This document shows, in pieces, positions 6,708 through 23,859 of a stretch of 31,960 bases of DNA (position 1 is its first letter; each line of letters opens with the position of its first letter). The stretch is taken from the NCBI GenBank assembly GCA_964555265.1, contig CAZKRS010000001.1, positions 1 to 31,960 of the forward strand. The letters are read 5' to 3'. The stretch is from an uncultured bacterium (lineage in GTDB: Bacteria; T1Sed10-126). The position numbers were made by a program, and so were the translations under genes. The notes beneath the pieces were generated by a model. It made no database searches, was not told where the DNA came from, and saw only the letters and a list, made by a program, of their open reading frames with translations.

Positions 6708-6709
6708 AA

Positions 6710-6901
6710 TCAGGCGAGTTCCTCTTCCAGGGCCTCCCGCCCCCGGTTAAGAGCATCTACAAACCCGTTAAACTGGTCAATTTCCAGGGTAAAATGAACA
6801 AAATTATACTGAACAACAACTCCATTCTCTGCCGGATCAAACCAGACCGAAATATAATCGCCGTCCTCATCCTCAAACTCAGCCAGGTTAACAATGGACA
6901 T
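6710..6901 (-). CDS. Small acidic hypothetical protein (63 aa)
   Basis: Strong GAGGAGG RBS; stop 2 nt before the FIST start; 15 D/E against 2 R and 0 K. Confidence 0.7.
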   Translation of the reverse strand: MSIVNLAEFEDEDGDYISVWFDPAENGVVVQYNFVHFTLEIDQFNGFVDALNRGREALEEELA

Positions 6902-7013
6902 CGCTTTTTCCTCCTCTTAAAGGTATGTAAAATATTCGAAGTAAATTTATCTTATTTTAACGGTTTCTTCCAGAATTTACAGACATGCCCGGGTAACCGG
7001 GATTTATTTAAAC

Positions 7014-7282
7014 TGTGCTCTCCCGGGGTTCTGGTTACAGATCATCTGTATTCTCCCAGTAATCCATTTACAGATAAATGAGGTTTCTGATTATCGGAAT
7101 TTTATAACCCGCAAGGGACAGGAGGTTCCTGTTATGCGGGATATAAACCTCGGAGCAGCCCGGAGGGCTGCGAGAATGAGATCATCAGAGACCTTATTTA
7201 TTCTTCCCTGGTTTGTAACCAGAACCCTGGGAGAGCACAGATCATCCCTTATCATAAGCACTCTCTGGCGCCCTCATTCTCG
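7014..7282. mobile_element. Relic end of a related element, interrupted by MITE copy 1
   Basis: 7014-7039 is 25/26 identical to the right TIR of MITE copy 1. With the MITE and one TSD removed, CTCTG-N5-CTCATTCTCG (7263-7282) falls at the same offset (23 nt after the TIR) as in the MITE. Confidence 0.55.
7047..7239 (+). mobile_element. 193-bp MITE, copy 1 (TGT...ACA ends, IS481-like by inference)
   Basis: Imperfect 26-bp TIRs (18/26; 11/13 at the tips); 7-bp direct repeat GATCATC at 7040-7046 and 7240-7246; 192/193 identical to the reverse complement of 18269-18461. Confidence 0.93.
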
Positions 7283-7412
7283 AACGCCATCCTTCCGGTG
7301 GGTTCTCACTTTCTCAGGATAGATGTTTCCCATCAGGAAAATATGCGGTAAAATGGTATGCTGGGTATTATCTGTTTATCCACCTCTGGCAGACAATAAC
7401 GGGAGGTTAACG

Positions 7413-7553
7413 ATGGCCAGTCAGCTAACCGAACAGGCCCGCCGGGAAGTCCTGGAGCTTGAAGACGTCGAGTTGGTCTTTGATCCTTCCCGGTCAAAAG
7501 ATATGATTACGGAAGATGGACAGGCCAGGTTGAACGAACCGGGCTATATGTAA
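7413..7553 (+). pseudogene. 46-aa ORF resembling the C-terminal half of DUF59/MIP18 (Fe-S assembly SufT-like) proteins
   Basis: MASQLTEQARREVLELEDVELVFDPSRSKDMITEDGQARL resembles the DUF59 tail after the CP motif (..VELVxDPPW..DM..E.A...L); no Cys and no N-terminal half; GGGAGG RBS present. Confidence 0.5.
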
Positions 7554-7583
7554 TGAAAATTTAGTTGCAGGGAGTCTGTCAAG

Positions 7584-8366
7584 ATGAAAATTATTGCTCT
7601 TATTGAAACGCTGGGTAGATATGGACGTGAAAAAATTGAAGACCTGGGCAAGTTCGGTGTTTTCCTGGGGAAAATATTTCAGACCATTTTTACTCCTCCC
7701 CTGAAAATAAAACGTGTCATTGACCGGATTCACACGATCGGCAGCTCTTCAATAGGGTTAATCTTCCTGATTAGTTCATTTACCGGCGCCGTCCTCGGGC
7801 TGCAGGTTTATTATCAGCTTGTCCAGTTTGGAGCCGCCGCCCGGACGGGGACTGTGGTCTCGCTTTCTTTGATCAGGGAACTGGGACCGGTTGTCTGCGC
7901 CCTGATGATTGCCGGACGGGCGGGGACGGCCATTGCCTCGGAGCTGGGAGTAATGCGGATCTCCGAACAGTTCGACGCCCTGAGCATCATGGATCTAAAT
8001 CCTTTCCGCTATTTTATTGCTCCTATTTTTATTGCTATGATCATCTCCGTCTTTCTGCTCACGACCATATTTAATCTGGTTGGGATCCTGGGCGGATACG
8101 TAGTTAGTGGCGGGCTACTGGCCCTTTCGCGGGGAGCTTATTTTGGGGGGATTGAGGATTTTGTAACCATGTGGGATATCACTAACGGATTAATAAAAGC
8201 CCTGGTTTTTGGGGGAATAGTTGCCTGGGTGAGCTGCTACAAAGGTTATTACTGCCGGCACGGGGCGGAAGGGGTCGGACGTGCCTCAACTGAAACCATG
8301 GTTCACTCCAGTATATTAATTTTAGTTGCCGACTATATCATGACATCAATTATGTTCACCGGTTAG
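7584..8366 (+). CDS. mlaE: Mla/Ttg2 ABC transporter permease
   Basis: RELGPVVCALMIAGRAGTAIASELGVMRISEQFDAL signature; GAEGVGRAST. Confidence 0.95.
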   Translation: MKIIALIETLGRYGREKIEDLGKFGVFLGKIFQTIFTPPLKIKRVIDRIHTIGSSSIGLIFLISSFTGAVLGLQVYYQLVQFGAAARTGTVVSLSLIRELGPVVCALMIAGRAGTAIASELGVMRISEQFDALSIMDLNPFRYFIAPIFIAMIISVFLLTTIFNLVGILGGYVVSGGLLALSRGAYFGGIEDFVTMWDITNGLIKALVFGGIVAWVSCYKGYYCRHGAEGVGRASTETMVHSSILILVADYIMTSIMFTG

Positions 8367-8377
8367 GAGAAAGAACA

Positions 8378-9133
8378 ATGATAGAAGTTAACAACTTACA
8401 TAAATCCCTGGGCGATGAGCAGGTTCTGCAGGGGATTAACCTCTCGATTCAAAAGGGAGAAATGTTTGCTCTTTTAGGGGGAAGCGGAGCCGGGAAATCG
8501 GTGTTGATTAAAAATATAGTCGGATTAATGAATCCCGACCGGGGGGAAGTATTAATAAACAACCAAAACATACATGAGCTGCGGGGAAGCAAGTTGAGCA
8601 AACTGCGCAGCTCGATCGGGATGTTATTCCAGGGGGGCGCTCTTTTTGATTCAATGACCGTCTATGAAAACCTGGCCTTCCCGCTCCGGGAGAAAACAGG
8701 TCTCGCAGAGGAAGAAATATCTACAAAAATCAGCCGGCAGCTCAAGCGGGTGGAACTTCAGGGCAGCGAGCAGAAATATCCGGCCGAACTAAGCGGGGGA
8801 ATGAAAAAAAGAGTTGCCCTGGCCCGCTGTCTTATCCTGGAACCGGAGATAATATTTTTTGACGAGCCAACCACCGGGCTGGACCCCCTGATAAGTAACG
8901 CTATTTTACGTTTAATATATAATATACACCGGGATTTAAAAATTACTGCGATTATAATTACTCATAATTTAGATAAAATATTTCCAATAGTTCAGAAAGC
9001 CGCACTGATCCATGAAGGAAAAATACTTGACTGTAATACACCGGAAAAATTCCTGGAATCGAATGAACCACTTATTAAAAAATTCGTGAACGAAGCAACC
9101 CGGGGACCCCTGGAGGCGATTGGTAATGCGTAA
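8378..9133 (+). CDS. mlaF: Mla ABC transporter ATP-binding subunit
   Basis: Walker A GGSGAGKS, MLFQGGALFDSMTV, LSGGMKKR, Walker B FFDEPT, H-loop; between mlaE and mlaD. Confidence 0.93.
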   Translation: MIEVNNLHKSLGDEQVLQGINLSIQKGEMFALLGGSGAGKSVLIKNIVGLMNPDRGEVLINNQNIHELRGSKLSKLRSSIGMLFQGGALFDSMTVYENLAFPLREKTGLAEEEISTKISRQLKRVELQGSEQKYPAELSGGMKKRVALARCLILEPEIIFFDEPTTGLDPLISNAILRLIYNIHRDLKITAIIITHNLDKIFPIVQKAALIHEGKILDCNTPEKFLESNEPLIKKFVNEATRGPLEAIGNA

Positions 9134-9575
9134 AATAGATTTTTCTGTCGGAATTTTCATCATTGTCGGCCTGCTTGTTCTAACATACATGTCCGTAAAT
9201 TTTGGAGACCTGAATATCCTGGGAACAAACTACTACCGGGTCAGCGCCCGGTTTTCCAACGTCACCGGACTGCAGAGGAACACGGAAGTAGAAATGCTGG
9301 GCATTCCCGTGGGCCGGGTGGATAAAATTCAACTGCGGGAATTTAACCCCACTGTTGAACTGTTAATTAGAGAGGATATTGATCTTCCGGAGGATACAAT
9401 TGCCAGCATCCGGACCCGGGGCCTGCTGGGAGAACAGTATGTTCATCTCTCCCCCGGGGGGCTGCCAATGGATATTCCCAAGGATGGCAGCGGTGAGATC
9501 CTGGAGACCGAATCGCCGCTGATACTGGAAGAAGTAATAGGAAGACTTATCTTTGGTGAAGCGGAGGAAAATTAA
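9126..9575 (+). CDS. mlaD: MlaD single-MCE-domain protein
   Basis: N-terminal TM, ARFSNVTGL, GIPVGRV, IRTRGLLGEQYVHLSPGG; GGAGG RBS 9 nt before ATG 9126. Confidence 0.93.
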   Translation: MRKIDFSVGIFIIVGLLVLTYMSVNFGDLNILGTNYYRVSARFSNVTGLQRNTEVEMLGIPVGRVDKIQLREFNPTVELLIREDIDLPEDTIASIRTRGLLGEQYVHLSPGGLPMDIPKDGSGEILETESPLILEEVIGRLIFGEAEEN

Positions 9576-10319
9576 ATGAGTAAAAAAGCAACAGCTATTA
9601 TTTTAACGGTTGTTTTTTTGTTTAGTTTCTTCCCAACCGTCGTTCTGGCTGAAAATAATGAACCTGAGCCGCAAAAGATTATTGAGGAAGGAATCCGGGA
9701 AGTTCTGCAATTGTTAGAAGATTCCCCGGTATACACCCCGGAAGATCTCCATCGGCTCCGACCAAAAATACAGGATGTTATTGAACCCTTGTTTGGATTT
9801 GAAGAGATCACTCTCCGCACCCTGGGCCGCCACGCCCGAGCAGCCAGTGAAAAACAGCTGGAAAAAATTGTCCCCCTGTATCGCGAACTGCTGGAAAACA
9901 TAATTTTAAACAGTCTCACCCCGATTGTGGAACACTCAAATGAACCACTGCCGATCCCCGAAGTTGAAATTACCGGCAGTGAGAGCAGAGAAAGCGGCGC
10001 GGTCCAATACGCCCGCGTGTTTTCAACCGCCCGGATTAACCCACAAAATGATGAAAAAAGAATGGAAGTAAAACTTAACTACCGGCTGGTCAAGCGGGAA
10101 GAGAACTGGATTGTCTACGATCTGGAAATTGAAGGCGTAAGTATGGTTGGAAACTATCGCTCCCAGTTTGATGATATCATCACCCGCCAATCGCTCGACG
10201 GTTTAATTTCCACTCTTGAGGAACGAATACGCCAGTTTGAAGAAGATCCCCAGAAAGCTCGGGAAGAGGTCGAGGACTGGCTGCCGGATACAGATGAGGA
10301 GCAAAATGATCAACAATAA
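9576..10319 (+). CDS. mlaC: MlaC/Ttg2D periplasmic phospholipid shuttle
   Basis: Signal peptide; YRLVKREENWIVYDLEIEGVSMVGNYRSQF signature; ATG abuts the mlaD stop. Confidence 0.9.
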   Translation: MSKKATAIILTVVFLFSFFPTVVLAENNEPEPQKIIEEGIREVLQLLEDSPVYTPEDLHRLRPKIQDVIEPLFGFEEITLRTLGRHARAASEKQLEKIVPLYRELLENIILNSLTPIVEHSNEPLPIPEVEITGSESRESGAVQYARVFSTARINPQNDEKRMEVKLNYRLVKREENWIVYDLEIEGVSMVGNYRSQFDDIITRQSLDGLISTLEERIRQFEEDPQKAREEVEDWLPDTDEEQNDQQ

Positions 10320-11052
10320 CGCTGAACAATCACGGTTGGCCGTGGTTGTTTTACTGCTTGGTTTTATTAGTTTAAATTTTCTCGCCCCGGGGACAGTTTC
10401 GGGCGAGAACGGGGCAGGTTACGATTTTGAGGACCCTTTTGAAGAAGAGACCGACGAGCTCCGGCCAGATAAAACGGCGGACCCGCTTGAAAGCTGGAAC
10501 AGGGTTGTCTTCGAGGTAAACGATTTTTTCTACCTGAAAATTCTGGACCCGGCAGCCCGGGGCTACCAGGCTGTTACTCCCCGTCCGATGCGCCGGGGGG
10601 TAAGCAACTTCTTCTCTAATTTAAGTGAACCTCTTTATTTTGTTAACTCCCTTCTCCAGCTGGAAGGAAAAGACGCTCATACAGCTTTTGCCCGGTTTAC
10701 AGTAAACAGCACCTTCGGCCTGGGAGGACTGTTTGACGTTGTTGATGATCAGCCAGAGCAGGTTCCTCGCCGGTTCGACCAGACCCTTGCCGTCTGGGGA
10801 ACGGGCCAGGGATTTTACATTGTCTGGCCCTTTCTGGGCCCCGCTACCCTGCGCAGCACCGTCGGGCGTGCCGGAGATACCACACTTGACCCCACCTGGT
10901 ATGCTTCCCCCCGGCTGGGCATGGAAGCAACGGCTGTTTATACCCTGAACGAAGCCCCAAAATGGCTTCAGGAATACGAACAGATGAAAAAATATATGAT
11001 CGATCCTTACAGCGGCGTGAAAAATGCGTACATTGAACAAACAAAATACTGA
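10306..11052 (+). CDS. mlaA: MlaA/VacJ-family protein
   Basis: DPLESWNRVVF, RGVSNFFSNL, RFTVNSTFGLGGLFDV, WPFLGPATLR; GAGGAG RBS before ATG 10306; protein has no Cys. Confidence 0.9.
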   Translation: MINNNAEQSRLAVVVLLLGFISLNFLAPGTVSGENGAGYDFEDPFEEETDELRPDKTADPLESWNRVVFEVNDFFYLKILDPAARGYQAVTPRPMRRGVSNFFSNLSEPLYFVNSLLQLEGKDAHTAFARFTVNSTFGLGGLFDVVDDQPEQVPRRFDQTLAVWGTGQGFYIVWPFLGPATLRSTVGRAGDTTLDPTWYASPRLGMEATAVYTLNEAPKWLQEYEQMKKYMIDPYSGVKNAYIEQTKY

Positions 11053-15878: not shown

Positions 15879-16733
15879 TTATCCCGGTTCGACATGTATA
15901 AATATCCGCTCGATTTTATTTATTTCTTTTAGTTTTTCTCTTAATTTCTCTTCCGCCGCATGAACTTCTCCCAGCGGGCGGCTGGATTCTGTCTCCACGA
16001 TAAGTGAAATATGAACCCGGGGACCAACAAAATGGGTCTTTATACCGGTCGGGCCGTAAAAATTATTATCATCGGCCACAATTTTCTTTATTTTATCAAC
16101 CAGGTCCTCGGGGGCGGCCCGGCCCGTGATATGGTTTACGTTCTCAATTAAAGTCCCTACTCCTACTTTCATAATTGCGAAGGCCATCAACAGGGCCACC
16201 AGGGGATCCAACCAGCGCCAGCCCACTGCCGCCGTAACAAGAGCAACCAGCACAGTCAGATCGGCAAGAATATCACTGGCCTGGTCCCGCCCCAGTGCTT
16301 TCACAGCGGGAGAATGCAACTTTTTACCTTCCCGCATGCAGTGCCAGGAAAGGACAGCTTTTATCGCCATTGAACCGGCAATTACCACAATCCCGGCCGG
16401 ATTAAGTGTTACCCGCCGACCGTAGTAAAAAGTCCAGCCGGCGTCATACAGAACATACAGTCCCGAAACTGTAATTATAAGCCCCACAAATATTCCCACC
16501 AGTGATTCAAAACGCTGGTGACCCTCGGGATGATTGGCATCCGGAGGTTGAATGCTCACCCATAGCCCCAGGTAAAGAACAATACCGTATAAAAAATCAG
16601 CCGCATTGTTAAAACCAACCGACCTCAAAGCCGAGGAATCAAGCCAGAATCCCACCCATAACTTGAGAACCGATAATCCCAGGCTGATGATCAATAATAA
16701 ATATACTGGCCGCAATACCTGCTTGCTCTTCAA
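15879..16733 (-). CDS. Cation diffusion facilitator (MntE/FieF-like metal exporter)
   Basis: GFNNAAD (TM2), DANHPEGHQRFE, DQASD (TM5), C-terminal dimerisation domain ending IHVEP. Confidence 0.93.
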   Translation of the reverse strand: MKSKQVLRPVYLLLIISLGLSVLKLWVGFWLDSSALRSVGFNNAADFLYGIVLYLGLWVSIQPPDANHPEGHQRFESLVGIFVGLIITVSGLYVLYDAGWTFYYGRRVTLNPAGIVVIAGSMAIKAVLSWHCMREGKKLHSPAVKALGRDQASDILADLTVLVALVTAAVGWRWLDPLVALLMAFAIMKVGVGTLIENVNHITGRAAPEDLVDKIKKIVADDNNFYGPTGIKTHFVGPRVHISLIVETESSRPLGEVHAAEEKLREKLKEINKIERIFIHVEPG

Positions 16734-16975
16734 TTTTATCCCTCATCCGGGGCTGAAAAAGATTAATTTTTAAAGATAATAACCCGATATTATATCACCC
16801 TTGAATTGTTTTTTGAAAATTAATGATTTAAAAATCAATCCCAGGCCTTTATCCTTAAAGTACAGGGGCGGTATATTTCAATTCTAAAATTTTCGCCGGG
16901 CGCCATTTTTTACGGGACATTTTAAATATAATGCGTTAAGCTAAATCACAATAAAAATTGCAGCGGAGGTTTGAA

Positions 16976-18106
16976 ATGAATCCCGTTAATTCCGTTTTAG
17001 GGCCCCGCCGGGTGACCTGGGAAATGACGCAGGTCAGCACAATTGACTGTCTTCACTGGCGGATAGAGAGCAAAAACAAGCCCGATCCGGATGAACTAAC
17101 CACCAGGGAAGGTAAGAACTTAATAGATCAACTGGATGAGCTGGGCACCAGGAGATTGATCCTGGCCGGCGGTGATCCTCTTGAACGCAACGATCTTGGC
17201 GAGCTAATACAATACGCCCGGGAAAAAAACATAAAATTAACCCTCCAGGCAACTCCCTCGGATAAACTTGTATCAAAAGTTATCAATGATTTTTCCCGGG
17301 AAGGTTTTTTTCGGATCAGTCTCCCCCTTGACGCTCCTTATCCCGAACTGCACAACAAATTCTGGAACAAAAAAAATGTTTTCCAGGATACAATCGAACT
17401 TGCGTATGAAATCCGGGAAAATGAAATGCCCCTGCAGATTAACACCGTGATTACCAGCCAGAGTGCTCCCCTGATGGCTGATCTATTTTTGAAAATTTCT
17501 TCTTTAAATCCCGTGACCTGGAAAATTTATTTCCTGGTCCCCACCGGCGGTGATGAAACTTTCCAGCCCCCCGGATTCCACGTTACAAGAATAATTTTTG
17601 AAGAAATTTACGAGCTGGAGCAAGAGGTAAATTTTGAAATATTAGCGGTGGAAGCTCCCTACTACAACAGGTTCTGGCTGGAAAATAAAACTGAAGAACT
17701 GGGGATTAACCTCGAGCAGTATACTTCGACACTAAATCCACTTTCCGTGGAAAAAGTTGATGAGTTTCTGCGGAAAAAAATAACGTTCAACCCGAAAAGA
17801 TTTCGCCGCCAGCCGGGGCGGGAGAGTTTGTTCATAAATCACCGGGGAACGGTTTACCCGGGCCGGTTCTTACCGCTGGAATGCGGCAACCTGCGCACGC
17901 AATCAATCAGGGAGATATTCCGGGACTCCCCCGTGTTAAAACAACTGCGAAATCCTTTAGAACTTGGTGGCTGCTGTCAAAAAACCAACTGCTGGGCCCG
18001 GGAAATATGTGGGGGATCCCGGGGCCGGGCTTACTTCTTTTCAGGCGACCACATGGGAACCGATCCTCTCTGTTTCTACCATGCCTTAAAAACCATGCGA
18101 CCTTAG
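16976..18106 (+). CDS. Radical SAM/SPASM-fold protein (TIGR04053/AhbD-NirJ-like) with degenerate SAM-cluster motif
   Basis: WEMTQVSTIDCLHWR where CxxxCxxC is expected; GGDPL, QINTVIT, FLVPTG, EAPYY and C-terminal CGGSRGRAY..DPLC retained; GGAGGT RBS before ATG 16976. Confidence 0.85.
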   Translation: MNPVNSVLGPRRVTWEMTQVSTIDCLHWRIESKNKPDPDELTTREGKNLIDQLDELGTRRLILAGGDPLERNDLGELIQYAREKNIKLTLQATPSDKLVSKVINDFSREGFFRISLPLDAPYPELHNKFWNKKNVFQDTIELAYEIRENEMPLQINTVITSQSAPLMADLFLKISSLNPVTWKIYFLVPTGGDETFQPPGFHVTRIIFEEIYELEQEVNFEILAVEAPYYNRFWLENKTEELGINLEQYTSTLNPLSVEKVDEFLRKKITFNPKRFRRQPGRESLFINHRGTVYPGRFLPLECGNLRTQSIREIFRDSPVLKQLRNPLELGGCCQKTNCWAREICGGSRGRAYFFSGDHMGTDPLCFYHALKTMRP

Positions 18107-18165
18107 AAGTGTGAAAGTGTGAAAGTGTGAAAGTGTGAAAGTGTGAAAGTGTGAAAGTGTGAAAG
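18107..18165. repeat. Octanucleotide tandem repeat (AAGTGTGA) x7 plus AAG
   Basis: Seven perfect units beginning at the base after the TAG stop at 18104-18106. Confidence 0.98.
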
Positions 18166-18463: not shown

Positions 18464-18685
18464 TTATGATTGGCTGAGCGGGCAGCTTCCGTCGGTGCAA
18501 TCCCGGGGCTGGCAGGCCGGCGGCGGGGCTTGAGACCGGTTTCCCACGGCAAACCTGCTCAACTGCCGGGTAGTCTCTAAACTGCCGCAGCGGGGGCATT
18601 CAGCCTCCTTATCACGGTTATCGCTGCCTCGTCTGAGACTAAAGCCCTCGCCACATTCATTGCAGTTGTAACGATAAGTGGGCAT
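18464..18685 (-). CDS. FmdB-family zinc-ribbon protein
   Basis: MPTYRYNCNECG...CPRCGS signature, plus Cys58/63/68 tail; AAGGAGG RBS. Confidence 0.88.
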   Translation of the reverse strand: MPTYRYNCNECGEGFSLRRGSDNRDKEAECPRCGSLETTRQLSRFAVGNRSQAPPPACQPRDCTDGSCPLSQS

Positions 18686-18720
18686 TGTTTTCCTCCTTAA
18701 GAACCGTTAGAAAATATGCG

Positions 18721-20016
18721 CTAAAAACTGTAGCGCAGACGGCTGTAGAAAAGATCGTTATCGTCAAGGCCGCCAAAACGGGTATCATCATATTCGGAAT
18801 CAAAATGAAGCGTTCCGGCGTAGATGTTGATTGAATCACTCCACTCGTAATCCGCTTCGAGGCGAAGATTGTAGTCTTCTTCGGTAATACCAAATAATCC
18901 CCGTGCTTCAACCACCAGGCGATCATCCCAGTATTCACGGGTAGTTGCCACCTGGAGGCGATATTTATCCCGCTCGGTGGCCGGATGGTCATCGTCCAGA
19001 TCATTTTCTGCTTGCCGGCGTGCTTGTGAAGCGTCGTCATCGACCAGCCAGGTCCCCTGGAGCATATAGGTTACCGTGGGCCGGGTCTGGTATTCAAGAC
19101 CGGCCATGAGCTGATACTGGTCGGAGGGCAGGTTCGGATTAGAACCGGCATCCTCGGCCCTGATATCCTCATAAGCTCCCTCAAGCCAGACAATCGCCCC
19201 ATACAGCGGCCCCCGGAGCGAAACTCCGCCTGCAGCCAGTTCAGGGTGGTATACCTCCGAATCAGAATCGACGGTTCTAACCGCCCGGGGCGTTCCCGTG
19301 AACCCCCGGTAGCCGTAGAGTGCTGTCTCCCAGCGACCAAAATTTCTGTGGACTCGCAGGTGAACTTCTCCATCCGAAATATCATCCCGTGGTCTTGCCA
19401 CTCCCGGCAGGGTATCTCCGGCAGAGCGCAACTCGCCCTCTCCCGGGTGATATACCGGCAGGATTAGTCCCCGGGGCGTCCGGTCGGCTTCAAACCTGGG
19501 CATCAGTGCGAGATCAAAGTTAAAATGATCCAGGTAACCGGCCAGGCGGAGAGCATCGTTAGGAGCCTTCAAATACTCAAGATCCCGCCCCAGGAAAAAA
19601 GAACGGTAATCCTTGGTAAACCTGTCGTTAACAAATTCATAGCGAGCGGGACCCCAGCTTAAAGTCTGCCGCCCCACCGTCAGATCATAACGGTGACCAA
19701 CGGGCAGCATCAGGGAACCTTCGCGCAACTCAACCTCCACGTCCCGCCGGCCCTCATGTTTGATAAGTCCCCGGAGGGTTGCCTGGGAACCGGCGGTGCC
19801 ATACCAGCGGTTCTCAAGCATAATCCTGTTCTCTTCGAGAACGTTTCGCTCTTCTATCGGCCCGTCGTTATCGTAGCGAACTCCCAGGGCCGGCTCAACA
19901 TAACCCTCAACGTTGAGGTTACCGTAGACAGGCGCGCCACTGAGGGCAAACAGCAGTGCCCCGAAAATGAGCAGTGAAAGAACAGCAGCAAGTTTAGGCT
20001 TATCACAAAGTTTCAC
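18721..20016 (-). CDS. Outer-membrane beta-barrel protein (DUF1302-like)
   Basis: Signal peptide; VGRQTLSWG; amphipathic strands; C-terminal beta-signal YSRLRYSF; context with LolA-like and MMPL genes. Confidence 0.7.
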   Translation of the reverse strand: MKLCDKPKLAAVLSLLIFGALLFALSGAPVYGNLNVEGYVEPALGVRYDNDGPIEERNVLEENRIMLENRWYGTAGSQATLRGLIKHEGRRDVEVELREGSLMLPVGHRYDLTVGRQTLSWGPARYEFVNDRFTKDYRSFFLGRDLEYLKAPNDALRLAGYLDHFNFDLALMPRFEADRTPRGLILPVYHPGEGELRSAGDTLPGVARPRDDISDGEVHLRVHRNFGRWETALYGYRGFTGTPRAVRTVDSDSEVYHPELAAGGVSLRGPLYGAIVWLEGAYEDIRAEDAGSNPNLPSDQYQLMAGLEYQTRPTVTYMLQGTWLVDDDASQARRQAENDLDDDHPATERDKYRLQVATTREYWDDRLVVEARGLFGITEEDYNLRLEADYEWSDSINIYAGTLHFDSEYDDTRFGGLDDNDLFYSRLRYSF

Positions 20017-20029
20017 GGCTATCCCTCCT

Positions 20030-20848
20030 TTACGGTTCTATCCACCGGGTTGGCGGACGGCGCAAATACCTCTCGGTAAAGATGTCCTCTCCAATCCCGA
20101 GATCGTATTCAATATCACTCATCTCAGCAACCGTATGCCCCTCCGTCCGGTGGTTCTTAGCTTTCTGAACCGTGGGAGTGACGTAACCGTCAATCTCCTC
20201 CCACTCCTCGAGAGTCAGGGTGCGGTGCTTGTCGCCACCGGGAGTATAGAATACACCTTTTACCGGCAGTTTTGTTTCCCGGGAGATATGCATCTCGTAG
20301 TAAGAAAATTCAACCAGGTCTTCATCTTTTGGATTTCCCCGGATAATATCCACGGTTTCACCGTCGATATGATCCATGCCGACGTAGGCGAAGGTATCCG
20401 CCTCGGGATGCCGGCCAGTCATGTCCTCGTAGGTAAAGTTAGAACCGGCAAAACTGTTTCTTTTCTGCCGACCGGTTATCCGCTGGACCATATCCATAGC
20501 CGGCAGATAGAGCCAGCGATCGTCATCATCACCGGGATAGGTATGAACCATGAAGACCATCCGGCGCAGATCGGCCGGCTGGCGAAAATAGGAATAATAT
20601 TTCTGACGATCCTCTCCCGTATTTTTCCGGAGCAGGGTAAGTTCCCTGGTTCGAACATTTCCCCGCCGGTCTTCAATCCTCATTGTTGCCTGCCAGCGGA
20701 CATCATCCCCCGGAAGATAGGCGGTCCGGTAGGACTCATAGGCCAGCCGGGCCGGATCAGGCTCCTCGGCCGGCAATTCAGCCGGTGTAAGCAAAAATAC
20801 AGCAAAAGTAACGGCTAACATGAAATATAACTTGAAATTATTCATCAT
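20030..20848 (-). CDS. LolA-like periplasmic carrier (outer membrane lipoprotein-sorting protein family)
   Basis: Signal peptide; YFRQPADLR, DDDRWLYLPA, RITGRQKRNSFAGSNFTYEDM signature. Confidence 0.88.
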   Translation of the reverse strand: MMNNFKLYFMLAVTFAVFLLTPAELPAEEPDPARLAYESYRTAYLPGDDVRWQATMRIEDRRGNVRTRELTLLRKNTGEDRQKYYSYFRQPADLRRMVFMVHTYPGDDDDRWLYLPAMDMVQRITGRQKRNSFAGSNFTYEDMTGRHPEADTFAYVGMDHIDGETVDIIRGNPKDEDLVEFSYYEMHISRETKLPVKGVFYTPGGDKHRTLTLEEWEEIDGYVTPTVQKAKNHRTEGHTVAEMSDIEYDLGIGEDIFTERYLRRPPTRWIEP

Positions 20849-20869
20849 AATCCCTCCTGAATAAGGTAA

Positions 20870-21073
20870 CTAATTTTTGTTATCAACCGATTCAAGTCCA
20901 CATTTCCCATAAAACCATTTGGCCGGACAGGTGCCGGTGAAGGCCGACTGGATCAAATTCAAAGAGACAAAACCTGTCAGCCAGAGCCACATATCAGAAT
21001 GAAATACTGCCAGCAGAACTGATATTCCCACCACTATCCCGGCCGTCAGTCGCAGAGCTTCTTCAACTGTCAT
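20870..21073 (-). CDS. DUF2892 (YgaP-like) small membrane protein
   Basis: Two TM helices, LIQSAFTGTCP motif (Cys49). Confidence 0.88.
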   Translation of the reverse strand: MTVEEALRLTAGIVVGISVLLAVFHSDMWLWLTGFVSLNLIQSAFTGTCPAKWFYGKCGLESVDNKN

Positions 21074-21074
21074 T

Positions 21075-23414
21075 TTAATCCACCTCTCCCGAAGAAAGAT
21101 AAGGGTGAAAAACTTCGAAAAACGAGAATAAACCCAGCAGCGTTGCCACGCCGGAAAGGGCCATGATAGTAATCATGAACACGCCCACGGTAACATAGGG
21201 TCTGAGCGGTGCTAAAAGCAGGGGCGTAAATCCAACCGCTATCACGATTGCATTTCGAGCAATCGCCCGGGCCGGTTCGCCGGAAATCAGCTCCCGGACC
21301 CGCTCCCACTGTTCATCCGCAGACAACCCGGGGTTCTCAAGTGCCACTTCCCGCATTATCTGGCGGCCACGTTGAATGAAATGAATCGCAAAATCTACCG
21401 CAATTCCAATACTCAACGCCGACAGGACAGCCACAGGCATATCATAGTCCTTCCCAATCCAGCCGACCATTCCATAAACTACCACCAGGGTAAAGGTCAG
21501 AGGAACCAGAGCCAACAGCGCCCAGCGCAGGCTGCGAAACAAAAACAGCATCATGATAAATATTGCCACGTAACTGCTGGCCAGGGCCCAGGCCATCCCC
21601 CAGACCATTACCTGCTGCCAGGCTACGTTGACTACGGTAATGCCTCCCCACTCGGGCTCAGCGGCCAGCTGAAGACCGGAGCCGGCAACAAGTTCCTCAG
21701 TTTTTTCTCGAACGGCGGACATAACCTGGTTATCCCCGCTCTGCAGGTGAAACCAGACGTTCACTTTTTGCCCGTCCGAAGAGACCAGCCGGAACAGATC
21801 CTCGGGGTTGCCGCTGTTTTCATATAGAAACAAATATTGCTGAACGGCCGCCGGCGAACCCGGAAAGTTCTCCTCGGCTTCCCCGGCGTGCAGTTCATGA
21901 TGTATCTTGCTGACTATCCCCGGCAGGGCGGTTGTTTTTCCAACCTCCTCCAGGGACTGTATTTCAGTTGTCAGGCGCTCCAATTCCTGCAAATTTTCCG
22001 GAGAATACCATCCACCGGCCTCCTTTTCCAGGACCATGTAGGCCGGATAGGAACCGGCAAAAGCCTCGTTGAAATAATCGTCCGCCTGGCGGATTGGATG
22101 GCCGCCCAAAAACCAGCGGGTAGGATTATCGTTCACCTGGATAAGCCCCATCCCGTAAATTCCCAGGAGAATAACTACCAGACCGAGGGAAAGAATCAGG
22201 TAAGGATGATCCCGTATCACACAGCTGCAGTCATGACAGCAGCTAACCAGCCGGCCTATCAGTGATTCTTCACCTTTCTTTGCCCGGGGCTTGGGCTGCC
22301 ATACGGAAGCACCGGCCGGCAACAGCGTCAGGGTGGTCAGAAAGGCCAGCAGAATTCCACTGGCCACGGCAATTCCAAATACCCTTACCGGCGGTATCCC
22401 GGTCAGACTCAGGGAAACAAAACCGGCGGCGGAAGTTAAACTGGTAAAAAGTATGGGGAAAAATATCTCCTCATATACCTCCGCCAGGACCTTCCGGCTG
22501 GAACTACCGGGACTCATCCTGTCGGTAAAATCACTCAATATATGGATGCTGTCAACTACGGCCACCGGAAGCAGAAATATTGAGATCATGGAACTCATAA
22601 TATGTATTTCAAACCCCAGGCCAATCACCCCCCCCATCGTCCACAATACGGTGATAACCGCCTGAAATAAAGCCCAGAAAACGAGACTGAAACTCCGGAA
22701 AAACAGGAGCATTAAAATGCCGATAACCACGAAAGCTATCGGGGCGGAGGTGGCCATCTGCTGGAACATCTTGTGGCCAAAAGTTTCTTCAGCCACCGGC
22801 AGGCCGGTAACATGTATTTTGCCCTCTGCCTGCTCCTGTTCCGACCAGAACTGGTGAATAGCCTGGCGCAGGGGGAAACTGTATTTTTTCTCCTCGATGG
22901 GAACAAACAGGGCCATCGCCCCCGACTGGCGGTTTAAAACCATCTCGGAAAGGACGGGATGTTTTTCAACCCGGTCGATTAAATTTTCCACCGCCGGGCC
23001 GTCCTCGGGCGGACTGCGCAGGAAACGATCAACATTAATGCTCCCGGCAACACCTTCTATGTCGTCGCTTGTATAGACGCTCAATATATCTTCGTAGACA
23101 ACTCCTTCGTGCCTCTCCACCATCTTCACCAGGTCATAGAGAACCTCCAGGCGGCGGGCAGTAATTTCCCGGTTATCTTCGGGAGGTTCAAGAGCGACCG
23201 CCACCATGTCATGGAGAAAAAACTCATCCTCGATCTGCCGGTCAAGAACCCGGGCGGGATGGTCCTCACGGAGCATATCCTCGGGATCCGTATTTATCTG
23301 GATATTTGGAAACTGAAACAGCATGAAAGCTGTGACAGCTATAACCAGTCCAAACACCACGTAAGGATGATCCCAGCAAAATCTTGAAATAGCACTTTTC
23401 CATGTAAACTTCAT
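21075..23414 (-). CDS. MMPL/RND-superfamily transporter
   Basis: Two repeats of TM plus periplasmic domain plus 5 TM; VVDSIH (TM4) and GIAVDFAIH (TM10) motifs; GGAG RBS favours ATG 23414 over GTG 23423. Confidence 0.92.
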   Translation of the reverse strand: MKFTWKSAISRFCWDHPYVVFGLVIAVTAFMLFQFPNIQINTDPEDMLREDHPARVLDRQIEDEFFLHDMVAVALEPPEDNREITARRLEVLYDLVKMVERHEGVVYEDILSVYTSDDIEGVAGSINVDRFLRSPPEDGPAVENLIDRVEKHPVLSEMVLNRQSGAMALFVPIEEKKYSFPLRQAIHQFWSEQEQAEGKIHVTGLPVAEETFGHKMFQQMATSAPIAFVVIGILMLLFFRSFSLVFWALFQAVITVLWTMGGVIGLGFEIHIMSSMISIFLLPVAVVDSIHILSDFTDRMSPGSSSRKVLAEVYEEIFFPILFTSLTSAAGFVSLSLTGIPPVRVFGIAVASGILLAFLTTLTLLPAGASVWQPKPRAKKGEESLIGRLVSCCHDCSCVIRDHPYLILSLGLVVILLGIYGMGLIQVNDNPTRWFLGGHPIRQADDYFNEAFAGSYPAYMVLEKEAGGWYSPENLQELERLTTEIQSLEEVGKTTALPGIVSKIHHELHAGEAEENFPGSPAAVQQYLFLYENSGNPEDLFRLVSSDGQKVNVWFHLQSGDNQVMSAVREKTEELVAGSGLQLAAEPEWGGITVVNVAWQQVMVWGMAWALASSYVAIFIMMLFLFRSLRWALLALVPLTFTLVVVYGMVGWIGKDYDMPVAVLSALSIGIAVDFAIHFIQRGRQIMREVALENPGLSADEQWERVRELISGEPARAIARNAIVIAVGFTPLLLAPLRPYVTVGVFMITIMALSGVATLLGLFSFFEVFHPYLSSGEVD

Positions 23415-23443
23415 ATCTATCACTCCATTAGTTTAACTTGAAT

Positions 23444-23803
23444 TTAAAAAATAGAATCGTTACCGTTAACCTGGTCAAAATACCGGGATTCCTCTTCTAT
23501 CACCTTTTGAATATAATCACAAGCACTGCTGCAAATTTCTATAACATCCTCCCCCGCTATCCGGTAATAGCTGCTTGTCCCCCTGTTTTCCCGTTCCAGA
23601 ACGTTGTTTTCCTCCAGCACTTTTAAATGCTTGGATATATTTGCCTGGCTATATCCCAGGATTTCAGTCAACTCCTTAACATTTTTCTGACCCTCCCGTA
23701 AAATTCTCACTATTTTCAAGCGAAGCGGATGCCCGAAAGCCTTGAATATCCGGGCAACCCGTTCTATATATTCCTCGGGAACCGGGCGGGATTCATTTTC
23801 CAT
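23444..23803 (-). CDS. ArsR/SmtB-family transcriptional repressor
   Basis: FKAFGHPLRLKI, SQANISKHLKVL winged HTH, RGTSSYYRI; only Cys are C91 and C95; AAAGGAGG RBS. Confidence 0.93.
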   Translation of the reverse strand: MENESRPVPEEYIERVARIFKAFGHPLRLKIVRILREGQKNVKELTEILGYSQANISKHLKVLEENNVLERENRGTSSYYRIAGEDVIEICSSACDYIQKVIEEESRYFDQVNGNDSIF

Positions 23804-23830
23804 AGTTTAAACCTCCTTTGATCCATTAAT

Positions 23831-23859
23831 AGTATATAACTATATAGTTATTAAGTCAA
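23831..23859 (-). promoter_or_regulatory. sigma70 promoter with 16-bp perfect palindrome (candidate ArsR operator) in the spacer
   Basis: Minus strand TTGACT (23859-23854), 17 nt, TATACT (23836-23831); ATAACTATATAGTTAT at 23836-23851. Confidence 0.8.

Follow-up and report, generated by a model that had tools for sequence, protein, structure and literature searches.

The 31,960-bp stretch analysed here, hereafter the window, is an entire contig (CAZKRS010000001.1, assembly GCA_964555265.1) of a metagenome-assembled genome from the uncultured bacterium T1Sed10-126. Six co-oriented genes on its minus strand, grouped together in a first-pass annotation made from the sequence letters, encode an ArsR-family repressor, an MMPL-type RND pump of the inner membrane, a small DUF2892 membrane protein, a LolA-like periplasmic carrier, an outer-membrane beta-barrel and a Zn-ribbon protein. 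This arrangement is not due to chance, for the co-oriented module turns up again in 163 loci spread over many phyla. We lean towards reading the operon as an autoregulated envelope transporter controlled by a cysteine switch and built on a conserved module of four genes (pump, DUF2892, carrier and barrel). The identity of this four-gene module is well supported. The most likely class of inducer and cargo would be sulfur in the zero-valent state (S8, polysulfane), or else a lipophilic, thiol-reactive compound akin to it. The module is widespread, and its neighbours and regulators point to reactive sulfur.

Conservation of the module and linkage of DUF2892

Loci with a relative of the window's barrel were annotated by iterated profiles built from the window's own proteins; the survey comprises 163 loci, designated by L numbers. 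Co-oriented genes for the MMPL pump, the LolA-like carrier and the barrel (the trio) were found in all 101 loci that are complete on both sides. The conservation of DUF2892 with the trio had been set beforehand as a test on which the proposal could fail. It held in 69 of the 101 complete loci, where an adjacent, co-oriented DUF2892 gene is present, and in three gene orders: DUF2892 follows the barrel in 50 complete loci, precedes the pump in 11, and stands between pump and carrier, the order seen in the window, in 4–6. The order LolA-barrel-DUF2892-MMPL was seen in two complete loci. Of the 102 DUF2892 genes in the 163 loci, 101 stand no more than 500 nt from the trio, and one was found in 1.35 Mb of flanking DNA. 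Since the linkage is kept while the position shuffles, there is strong genomic evidence that DUF2892 is a functional partner of the trio. A partnership with the pump itself would follow from this gene linkage, and we infer a role in transport. Whatever the cargo, DUF2892 is placed for the first time in a strong functional context, that of a partner to an RND pump.

The DUF2892 protein of the window scores 42.1 bits against PF11127 (cut-off 25.3), and its gene begins 1 nt past the stop codon of the pump gene. Its Cys49-Pro50 pair, in the motif TGTCP, aligns to the F-C-P column of the family, where Cys is kept in ~90% and Pro in ~80% of 103 module-linked homologues. By homology with YgaP, this Cys-Pro motif is presumably located at the cytoplasmic end of helix 2. 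No sequence relative of DUF2892 was found in the PDB.

The family to which the barrel belongs comprises 5044 clusters at 50% identity (E<=1e-3), with at least 586 matches among GTDB species genomes. Cultivable carriers of the module (Hahella sp. KA22, Halomonas faecis, Kordiimonas lipolytica, Spiribacter onubensis) make the sulfur hypothesis directly testable.

Components of the transporter

The pump matches MMPL (PF03176) in two stretches, with 94 bits against a gathering threshold of 20.5. Its best NCBIfam match is HAE3 (TIGR00921) at 128.7 bits, below the cut-off of 351.9, and its PDB matches (MmpL4/5, SecD and Dispatched, ~1e-6) are distant. By these profile matches it is a divergent HAE3-like protein. 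Hydrophobic blocks lie at residues 17-35, 228-365, 399-427 and 608-763 in a hydropathy scan, made without a dedicated topology predictor. An alternative start, GTG at 23423, would give a protein of 782 aa. Pfam and NCBIfam scans of the operon and of the other window open reading frames (ORFs) scanned returned neither a membrane fusion protein (MFP, HlyD) nor an outer-membrane efflux protein or factor (OEP/OMF, TolC). The domain scans thus agree with the trans-envelope RND system without MFP or TolC that had been proposed. A classical tripartite RND system was rejected, as neither MFP nor OMF was found in the operon or in these ORFs.

The central cytoplasmic loop of the pump carries a cysteine cluster, SCCHDCSC (residues 391-398; window 22221-22244). 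It is restricted to the near clade, where it reads SCCEDCSC in L085, HCSDECGC in L001 and NCPPDGFC in L002. This Cys-rich insertion may represent a cytoplasmic thiol or metal site beside the DUF2892 cysteine.

The carrier belongs to the LolA_like/TP_0789-like family (PF17131, 169.8 bits against 30). The protein carries a signal peptide but neither a lipobox nor any Cys, and its homologues in the PDB are 9TP6 (P. gingivalis LolA3, 3e-28), 4Z48 and 3BK5. Matches to DUF1329 are only faint, and occur in relatives of the carrier. In five loci (L023, L026, L049, L059 and L077) pump and carrier are fused in a single ORF of ~1050-1100 aa, with the carrier at the C-terminus of the pump. All five fusions keep a 13th, signal-peptide-like hydrophobic segment and an AxA site between transmembrane segment 12 and the LolA domain. 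The carrier is therefore periplasmic and works at the pump, and the fusions support a direct hand-off of cargo from pump to carrier.

The barrel has a signal peptide and the C-terminal sequence ...RLRYSF, and its AF2 model (pLDDT 88.4, pTM 0.84) contains ~18-20 strands as counted from DSSP; it is an outer-membrane beta-barrel. The mature protein has no Cys. Foldseek comparison of the model with the PDB gave generic 16-18-strand porins, AlgE and OccD (TM ~0.5, probability 1.0), and no specific functional relative. The outer-membrane barrel named in the first-pass annotation is thus borne out by the model. Its placement with DUF1302 holds less firmly: the window protein has no Pfam match of its own at E<=0.1, to PF06980 (DUF1302) or otherwise, and weak PF06980 matches occur in 27 of 41 barrel relatives (best 1.6e-7). 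On these matches the protein is a distant and shorter relative of DUF1302. Its most conserved stretch, GRQ..W......F.ND.F.KD...FF.GR....LKAP (residues 115-152), is not in a strand and may form a channel or docking loop.

Promoter, operator and regulators

The promoter scan returned a sole strong sigma-70-like site on the minus strand, TTGACT-17-TATACT (Table 1), and the view that the operon has a single promoter is upheld by it. Inside its spacer lies the perfect palindrome ATAACTATATAGTTAT. The same palindrome is found, identical and equally placed between a TTGAC -35 element and the -10 element, in L001 and L085, whose proteins are only ~50% identical. In L166, where the ArsR is 76% identical, the palindrome differs by one mismatch, and in L002 it is degenerate; the -35/-10 frame is kept in L001, L085 and L166. 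Because of this phylogenetic footprint, the palindrome is likely the ArsR operator. ArsR would bind ATAACTATATAGTTAT, and the operon would thus be autoregulated.

The window ArsR belongs to the ArsR/SmtB family (85.7 bits with NF033788, cut-off 55; 50.6 bits with HTH_5). Its two cysteines, C91 and C95, form a Cx3C pair in helix alpha5, and no Cys precedes residue 91. The first-pass annotation had likened it to repressors of the BigR/SqrR/YgaV type, an assignment that has to be withdrawn: the alpha2 Cys (LxxLC) of BigR, SqrR, YgaV and sHdrR is absent and both cysteines lie in alpha5. Its score against the BigR model NF040642 is 41 bits (cut-off 155), and its PDB matches to BigR, SqrR and YgaV are weak. 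Assignment to a Tso system was rejected as well (TsoR, NF045707, 46.5 bits, below the cut-off of 115), and nothing relevant was found in the literature on TsoR. The Cx3C pair is kept in the module-linked ArsRs of L001, L002, L004, L085, L166, L024, L098/99 and L066, and loci with Cx3C ArsRs include some from Krumholzibacteriota and Spiribacter. A search for homologues of the window ArsR gave 18 proteins, and no independent Cx3C context beyond L166. Spaced i, i+4 on one helix and close to the alpha5 dimer axis, such a pair might accommodate either a polysulfide bridge or a thiophilic metal. This Cx3C alpha5 subtype, with its predicted operator, is a candidate new thiol or persulfide sensor.

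An ArsR gene is present at 31 of the 101 complete loci; named in the first-pass annotation as controlling the system, it accompanies only ~31% of loci and is not a core part. About ten module loci, and in addition the cultured Hahella sp. KA22, carry YgaV/SqrR/BigR-like ArsRs with an alpha2 Cys and a C-terminal YC, and the regulators of proteobacterial relatives thus have both cysteines expected of a sulfane-sulfur sensor. ArsR-rhodanese fusions occur at five module loci, and another module-linked ArsR type pairs an alpha1 Cys with a Cys at the C91 position. In Zixibacteria, Ignavibacteria and allies an extracytoplasmic function (ECF) sigma factor precedes the module in place of ArsR, accompanied by a soluble anti-sigma protein of ~83 aa with an RsrA-type C...HxxxCxxC motif (21-29 loci). 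These regulators are diverse and unrelated and all carry sensor-type cysteines, and so appear to have been recruited repeatedly to one module. Thiol-responsive control of the module is moderately supported. In Hahella sp. KA22 (L164, CP034836, 4886-10434) a two-Cys ArsR of the YgaV/SqrR type is divergent from DUF2892-MMPL-LolA-like-barrel.

Genes next to the module

True sulfide:quinone oxidoreductase (SQR) genes stand directly beside the trio in ~11 loci, in three arrangements (PDB matches 3SZ0 at 6e-147 and 3HYV at 1e-95), either just upstream of the pump or just downstream of the barrel. In one SQR lineage the operon runs on with a pyridoxal-phosphate lyase of Cys/Met metabolism and an Aminotran_5 enzyme. 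In L004 a CstB-like persulfide dioxygenase (PDO)-rhodanese (3TP9 at 7e-77; S. aureus CstB, 3R2U, at 6e-62) comes after the Cx3C ArsR in the same orientation, and a gene for an enzyme of the CoA-disulfide-reductase (CoADR) family follows the module. In L002 the module is followed by DUF302 and the same CoADR-family reductase. A thioredoxin gene lies between ArsR and pump in the nearest three co-oriented relatives, L166 (3043-3360), L001 (3930-4241) and L085 (3543-3860); the window lineage has no such gene, only a 29-nt gap (23415-23443). DsrE, DUF302 and Redoxin also recur as neighbours. No recurrent metal-transport family was found among the surveyed neighbours of the module. Literature on DUF302 and persulfide was uninformative, and neighbouring genes at the high-GC loci L066, L024 and L098 could not be interpreted with the simple ORF caller used. 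The thiol and sulfane-sulfur theme suggested earlier gains independent support from the relatives, through SQR, CstB-like, CoADR-like, DsrE and thioredoxin genes and the cysteines of the regulators; the window itself has no sulfur gene.

Two families without assignment were also noted. A multi-TM (transmembrane) protein of ~190 aa with the motif PLRLRRKRLAA.CLF, without Pfam or NCBIfam match, adjoins the module in eight loci, among them L087 (5598-6125), L091 (4364-4954), L115 (6029-6604), L136, L143, L150 and L154, often where DUF2892 is missing. A lipoprotein of ~265 aa follows DUF2892 in Zixibacteria-type loci (L009, L013, L020, L027, L039, L094, L106, L111 and L122).

Relation to described systems

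In Castellaniella defragrans, the tetrapartite AmeABCD consists of an HAE3 pump, a DUF1302 outer-membrane protein, a DUF1329 protein of the LolA superfamily and AmeC; the system is required for tolerance to monoterpenes and has a share in the export of Nile Red (PMC6394551). AmeABCD and the module have in common an HAE3-type pump without MFP or TolC, a LolA-superfamily protein and a barrel in one operon, and the inducible protection that AmeABCD gives against a very hydrophobic compound was counted as a further likeness. AmeA is a bona fide DUF1302 protein of 605 aa, whereas the barrel of the window has 431 aa and no Pfam match; AmeB is a 451-aa DUF1329 protein, whereas the window carrier is a 272-aa PF17131 protein. 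AmeC, a BNR/Ycf48-like periplasmic protein, is found only in AmeABCD and DUF2892 only in the module, and AmeABCD lies in a monoterpene catabolic island whereas the window operon is placed under a Cys-bearing ArsR. With no AmeC gene or DUF1329 carrier in the operon, and none in the surveyed loci, the operon does not belong to the AmeABCD type.

In Thalassolituus oleivorans, TOL_3187, an MMPL-LolA-like fusion, is 42-fold up on n-C28, and the adjacent porin TOL_3188, which lacks recognised domains, is expressed exclusively on n-C28 (PMC6304351). The same pump-carrier-barrel logic is seen, and the fusion mirrors the five module fusions; the likeness is one of architecture. TOL_3187/88 differs in being induced by the n-C28 alkane and in having no reported DUF2892 or ArsR. 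The earlier statement that such trios are largely uncharacterised was overstated, since AmeABCD and TOL_3187/88 have data, both on hydrocarbons. The operon is a new type within a known class, that of HAE3 RND-carrier-barrel systems without MFP or TolC; whatever the cargo, this class is broader than AmeABCD alone.

In E. coli YgaV-YgaP an ArsR-family repressor adjoins a DUF2892 membrane domain, as in the module, and the Hahella, Halomonas and Kordiimonas versions of the module carry two-Cys ArsRs of the YgaV/BigR/SqrR/sHdrR type. YgaP, however, bears a rhodanese domain, with pump, carrier and barrel all lacking, and the Cys pair of the window ArsR (Cx3C in alpha5) is a different one. The two-Cys sulfane-sulfur ArsRs often adjoin "RND transporters" of unspecified RND type (PMC12423496). 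Examples are those of R. capsulatus SqrR, Halorhodospira and Rhodopseudomonas (Li, Dahl et al., PMC12423496), whose RND genes may correspond to the module; Rhodobacter capsulatus was absent among the best 120 matches listed in a proteobacterial barrel search. A DUF2892 gene is ~10-fold up under H2S in Azospira (PMC5358917).

The HpnN/MmpL lipid exporters likewise use MMPL-family pumps, which run on the proton motive force (PMF), to extract hydrophobic molecules from the inner membrane. The similarity is distant (106 bits with NCBIfam HpnN, cut-off 752; MmpL4/5 in the PDB, ~1e-6), and these systems have no dedicated LolA-like carrier and barrel. MmpS, AcrZ and YajC provide a precedent for small membrane partners of RND pumps, although DUF2892 is unrelated to them. 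Literature searches returned no description of DUF2892 with MMPL, LolA-like and barrel genes, none of SQR with MMPL or LolA, and nothing linking the module to the exit of sulfur across the envelope. We know of no account of how the water-insoluble S0 or polysulfane that sulfide oxidation yields passes from the periplasm or membrane across the outer membrane, nor of how anaerobes clear toxic S8 from their membranes.

Proposed mechanism and alternative explanations

In the mechanism proposed for the window operon, ArsR would occupy the palindrome between the -35 and -10 elements and be freed when the alpha5 Cx3C pair is modified by persulfide, polysulfide or another thiol-reactive agent. The PMF-driven pump, together with the two-helix DUF2892, would pull a very hydrophobic, uncharged molecule out of the inner membrane. 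After hand-off from the pump, the Cys-free LolA-like protein would carry the cargo across the periplasm, and the DUF1302-like barrel would pass it into or through the outer membrane. With a cargo of the sulfur type, the system would be a detoxifying exporter.

Zero-valent sulfur (S8, polysulfane) is preferred as cargo because it is membrane-soluble, thiol-reactive and a product of the co-encoded SQR, and because carrier and mature barrel are free of Cys; as a specific assignment it is nonetheless tentative. The fuller proposal is held with the same reserve, as one possibility and not as a probable one: that the module is a dedicated S8/polysulfane exporter, collecting in the inner membrane the hydrophobic sulfur that SQR or abiotic sulfide oxidation forms and moving it out through the outer membrane, with the DUF2892 Cys aiding the pump in sulfur handling or gating and with several unrelated persulfide-sensing regulators as switches. 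A lipophilic sulfur cargo had already been suggested, next to a lipid, in the first-pass annotation. The sulfur-gene neighbours of relatives speak for it, the closest systems are hydrocarbon systems, and it keeps the standing of a hypothesis.

Several observations weigh against a sulfur-responsive exporter. No SQR, PDO, rhodanese or DsrE gene is present in the 32-kb window, and a sulfur or thiol enzyme lies within 3 kb in only 13 of the 76 loci that have 1.5 kb or more on each side. DUF2892 is missing from the majority of SQR-linked loci, so the link to sulfur does not depend on it. The window ArsR is without the diagnostic Cys pair of BigR/SqrR and falls far under the BigR and TsoR cut-offs, and its Cx3C pair, located at the alpha5 dimer interface, might just as well form a site for a thiophilic metal. 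The surveyed loci are phylogenetically non-independent. Experimental data on architecturally similar systems concern monoterpenes (AmeABCD) and n-C28 (TOL_3187/88). The direction of transport, the contact of DUF2892 with the pump and the chemistry at ArsR are proposals that we infer from sequence.

The data on hydrocarbons lead to the first of the other explanations, a generic efflux of hydrophobes or solvents of the AmeABCD or TOL_3187/88 kind, for hydrocarbons, terpenes or lipid-peroxidation products. The Cys regulators would then sense secondary thiol or membrane stress, and the sulfur genes nearby would have been added in particular lineages. Monoterpene tolerance and Nile Red export by AmeABCD (PMC6394551) and the induction of TOL_3187/88 on n-C28 (PMC6304351) fit it, as do the scarcity of sulfur enzymes near most loci and the OsmC, AhpC/Redoxin and thioredoxin neighbours, which would suit organic-peroxide or electrophile stress. 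Hydrocarbon-catabolic genes, however, do not recur beside this module subfamily, AmeC is missing with DUF2892 in its stead, and SQR, the CstB-like PDO-rhodanese, DsrE, ArsR-rhodanese or the SqrR/YgaV-type ArsR are specific to sulfane sulfur. We regard solvent efflux as unlikely. An equivocal Cx3C pair would also suit detoxification of metals, metalloids or organometals (organotin, organomercurial, methylated As/Se/Te, elemental Se/Te), whose lipophilic species the pump would remove, with ArsR as a metalloregulator through a Cys4 site at the alpha5 dimer interface and with DUF2892 and the Zn ribbon as thiolate ligands. The ArsR/SmtB family match is labelled "metalloregulator", C91/C95 align where CzrA/SmtB have their alpha5 site, ygaVP of E. 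coli is inducible by tributyltin, the gene directly upstream of the pump in L002 and L004 encodes a UbiE/ArsM-like S-adenosylmethionine (SAM) methyltransferase, and a cation diffusion facilitator (CDF) transporter is nearby in the window and L001. This explanation is nevertheless improbable: no metal transporter, MerA, ArsB/Acr3 or ArsC family recurs beside the module, the CDF gene is separate and convergently placed, and the sulfur enzymes and rhodanese fusions favour sulfur over metal.

Transport could also run inward, with barrel and carrier delivering insoluble S0, or some other hydrophobic substrate, to the cytoplasmic membrane, where it would be respired or oxidised. Carriers of the module include sulfur reducers and oxidisers (Desulfuromonas, Ectothiorhodospiraceae, Thiosymbion, Woeseiaceae), and in the work on TOL_3187/88 the porin was proposed to aid passage of long-chain alkanes for uptake (PMC6304351). 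Stress-type repressors and anti-sigma control, however, suit detoxification more than nutrient acquisition. RND pumps, moreover, move their substrates outward from membrane or periplasm, and uptake is considered very unlikely. Homology of the PF17131 carrier to P. gingivalis LolA3 (PMC13103446), and the LolA-like and MMPL pairs of aryl-polyene clusters, would accord with housekeeping traffic of outer-membrane lipids or lipoproteins, Lol-like or as a pigment/aryl-polyene-type lipid exporter. Such a role is given the least credence, as there are no adjacent lipid-biosynthetic genes, control is by stress-type repressors and anti-sigma proteins, the module is patchily distributed, the carrier lacks a lipobox and LolA3 does not pair with LolB.

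Operon layout

The ORF listing confirms six co-oriented genes with intergenic gaps of 29, 1, 21, 13 and 35 nt, and AGGAGG-type or GGAG Shine-Dalgarno sequences 5-9 nt before all starts bear out the strong ribosome-binding sites noted before. The cysteines reported earlier are all in place (ArsR C91/C95, DUF2892 TGTCP, and in the Zn ribbon two CxxC motifs with C58, C63 and C68). The picture of a single unit needs correction at one point: a hairpin (18737..18717) precedes the Zn-ribbon gene. It could attenuate read-through into that gene and so, perhaps, uncouple it in part from the other five.

Table 1. Features of the operon and its promoter in the window.
Feature	Position	Strand	Basis or remark
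Sigma-70-type promoter, TTGACT-17 nt-TATACT	23859..23831	-	10 of 12 matches
Perfect 16-bp palindrome ATAACTATATAGTTAT, predicted ArsR operator	23836..23851	strand-neutral	inside promoter spacer
ArsR/SmtB-family repressor, 119 aa	23444..23803	-	NF033788, HTH_5
MMPL/HAE3-like RND inner-membrane pump, 779 aa from ATG	21075..23414	-	PF03176
DUF2892/YgaP-like_TM small membrane protein, 67 aa	20870..21073	-	PF11127
LolA-like soluble periplasmic carrier, 272 aa	20030..20848	-	PF17131
Outer-membrane beta-barrel, 431 aa, GTG start	18721..20016	-	AF2 model, signal peptide
Weak terminator-like hairpin	18717..18737	-	7-bp stem with 4 GC, T-rich tail; overlaps the stop codon of the barrel gene
FmdB-family Zn-ribbon protein, 73 aa, cytoplasmic	18464..18685	-	TIGR02605

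The Zn-ribbon protein belongs to the FmdB family (TIGR02605, 54.1 bits against 31.3). It had been counted as an operon part of the system, a place it loses: it was found in only two of the 163 related loci (L001 and L085), was rejected as a core component and is a clade-specific accessory of the nearest subclade. Its C-terminal CxxG[ST]CP motif (window 18464-18500) is kept in all three homologues (window, L001 and L085); its resemblance to the TG[TF]CP of DUF2892 may be a coincidence.

Remaining features of the window

Positions 7584-11052 contain a full Mla operon for phospholipid transport (MlaE, F, D, C, A), followed by LpoB- and LPP20-like lipoproteins. As annotated, the Mla genes confirm a diderm envelope. 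Genes for 2-oxoacid:ferredoxin oxidoreductase and radical-SAM enzymes are also present; together with the Mla operon and LpoB they point to an anaerobic diderm. Rfam and tRNA scans of the window were empty. Between a FIST-domain gene and mlaE, ~880 nt (6708-7583) contain no ORF of 100 aa or more and match neither Rfam nor tRNA models.

The radical-SAM/SPASM (TIGR04053-like) and CDF genes at 15879-18106, downstream of the operon, are syntenic with L001:12906-15103. A metal-efflux operon coupled to the nearby CDF gene was considered and rejected, as the CDF gene forms a separate, convergent unit. In L001, an oxidative-stress island of OsmC, DUF302, ferredoxin, rubrerythrin, ferritin and desulfoferrodoxin genes lies between the syntenic pair and the Zn-ribbon gene. 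In the window, the convergent Zn-ribbon and radical-SAM/SPASM genes are separated by a 357-nt gap, in which the 8-nt sequence AAGTGTGA is perfectly repeated in tandem 7.4 times (18107-18165).

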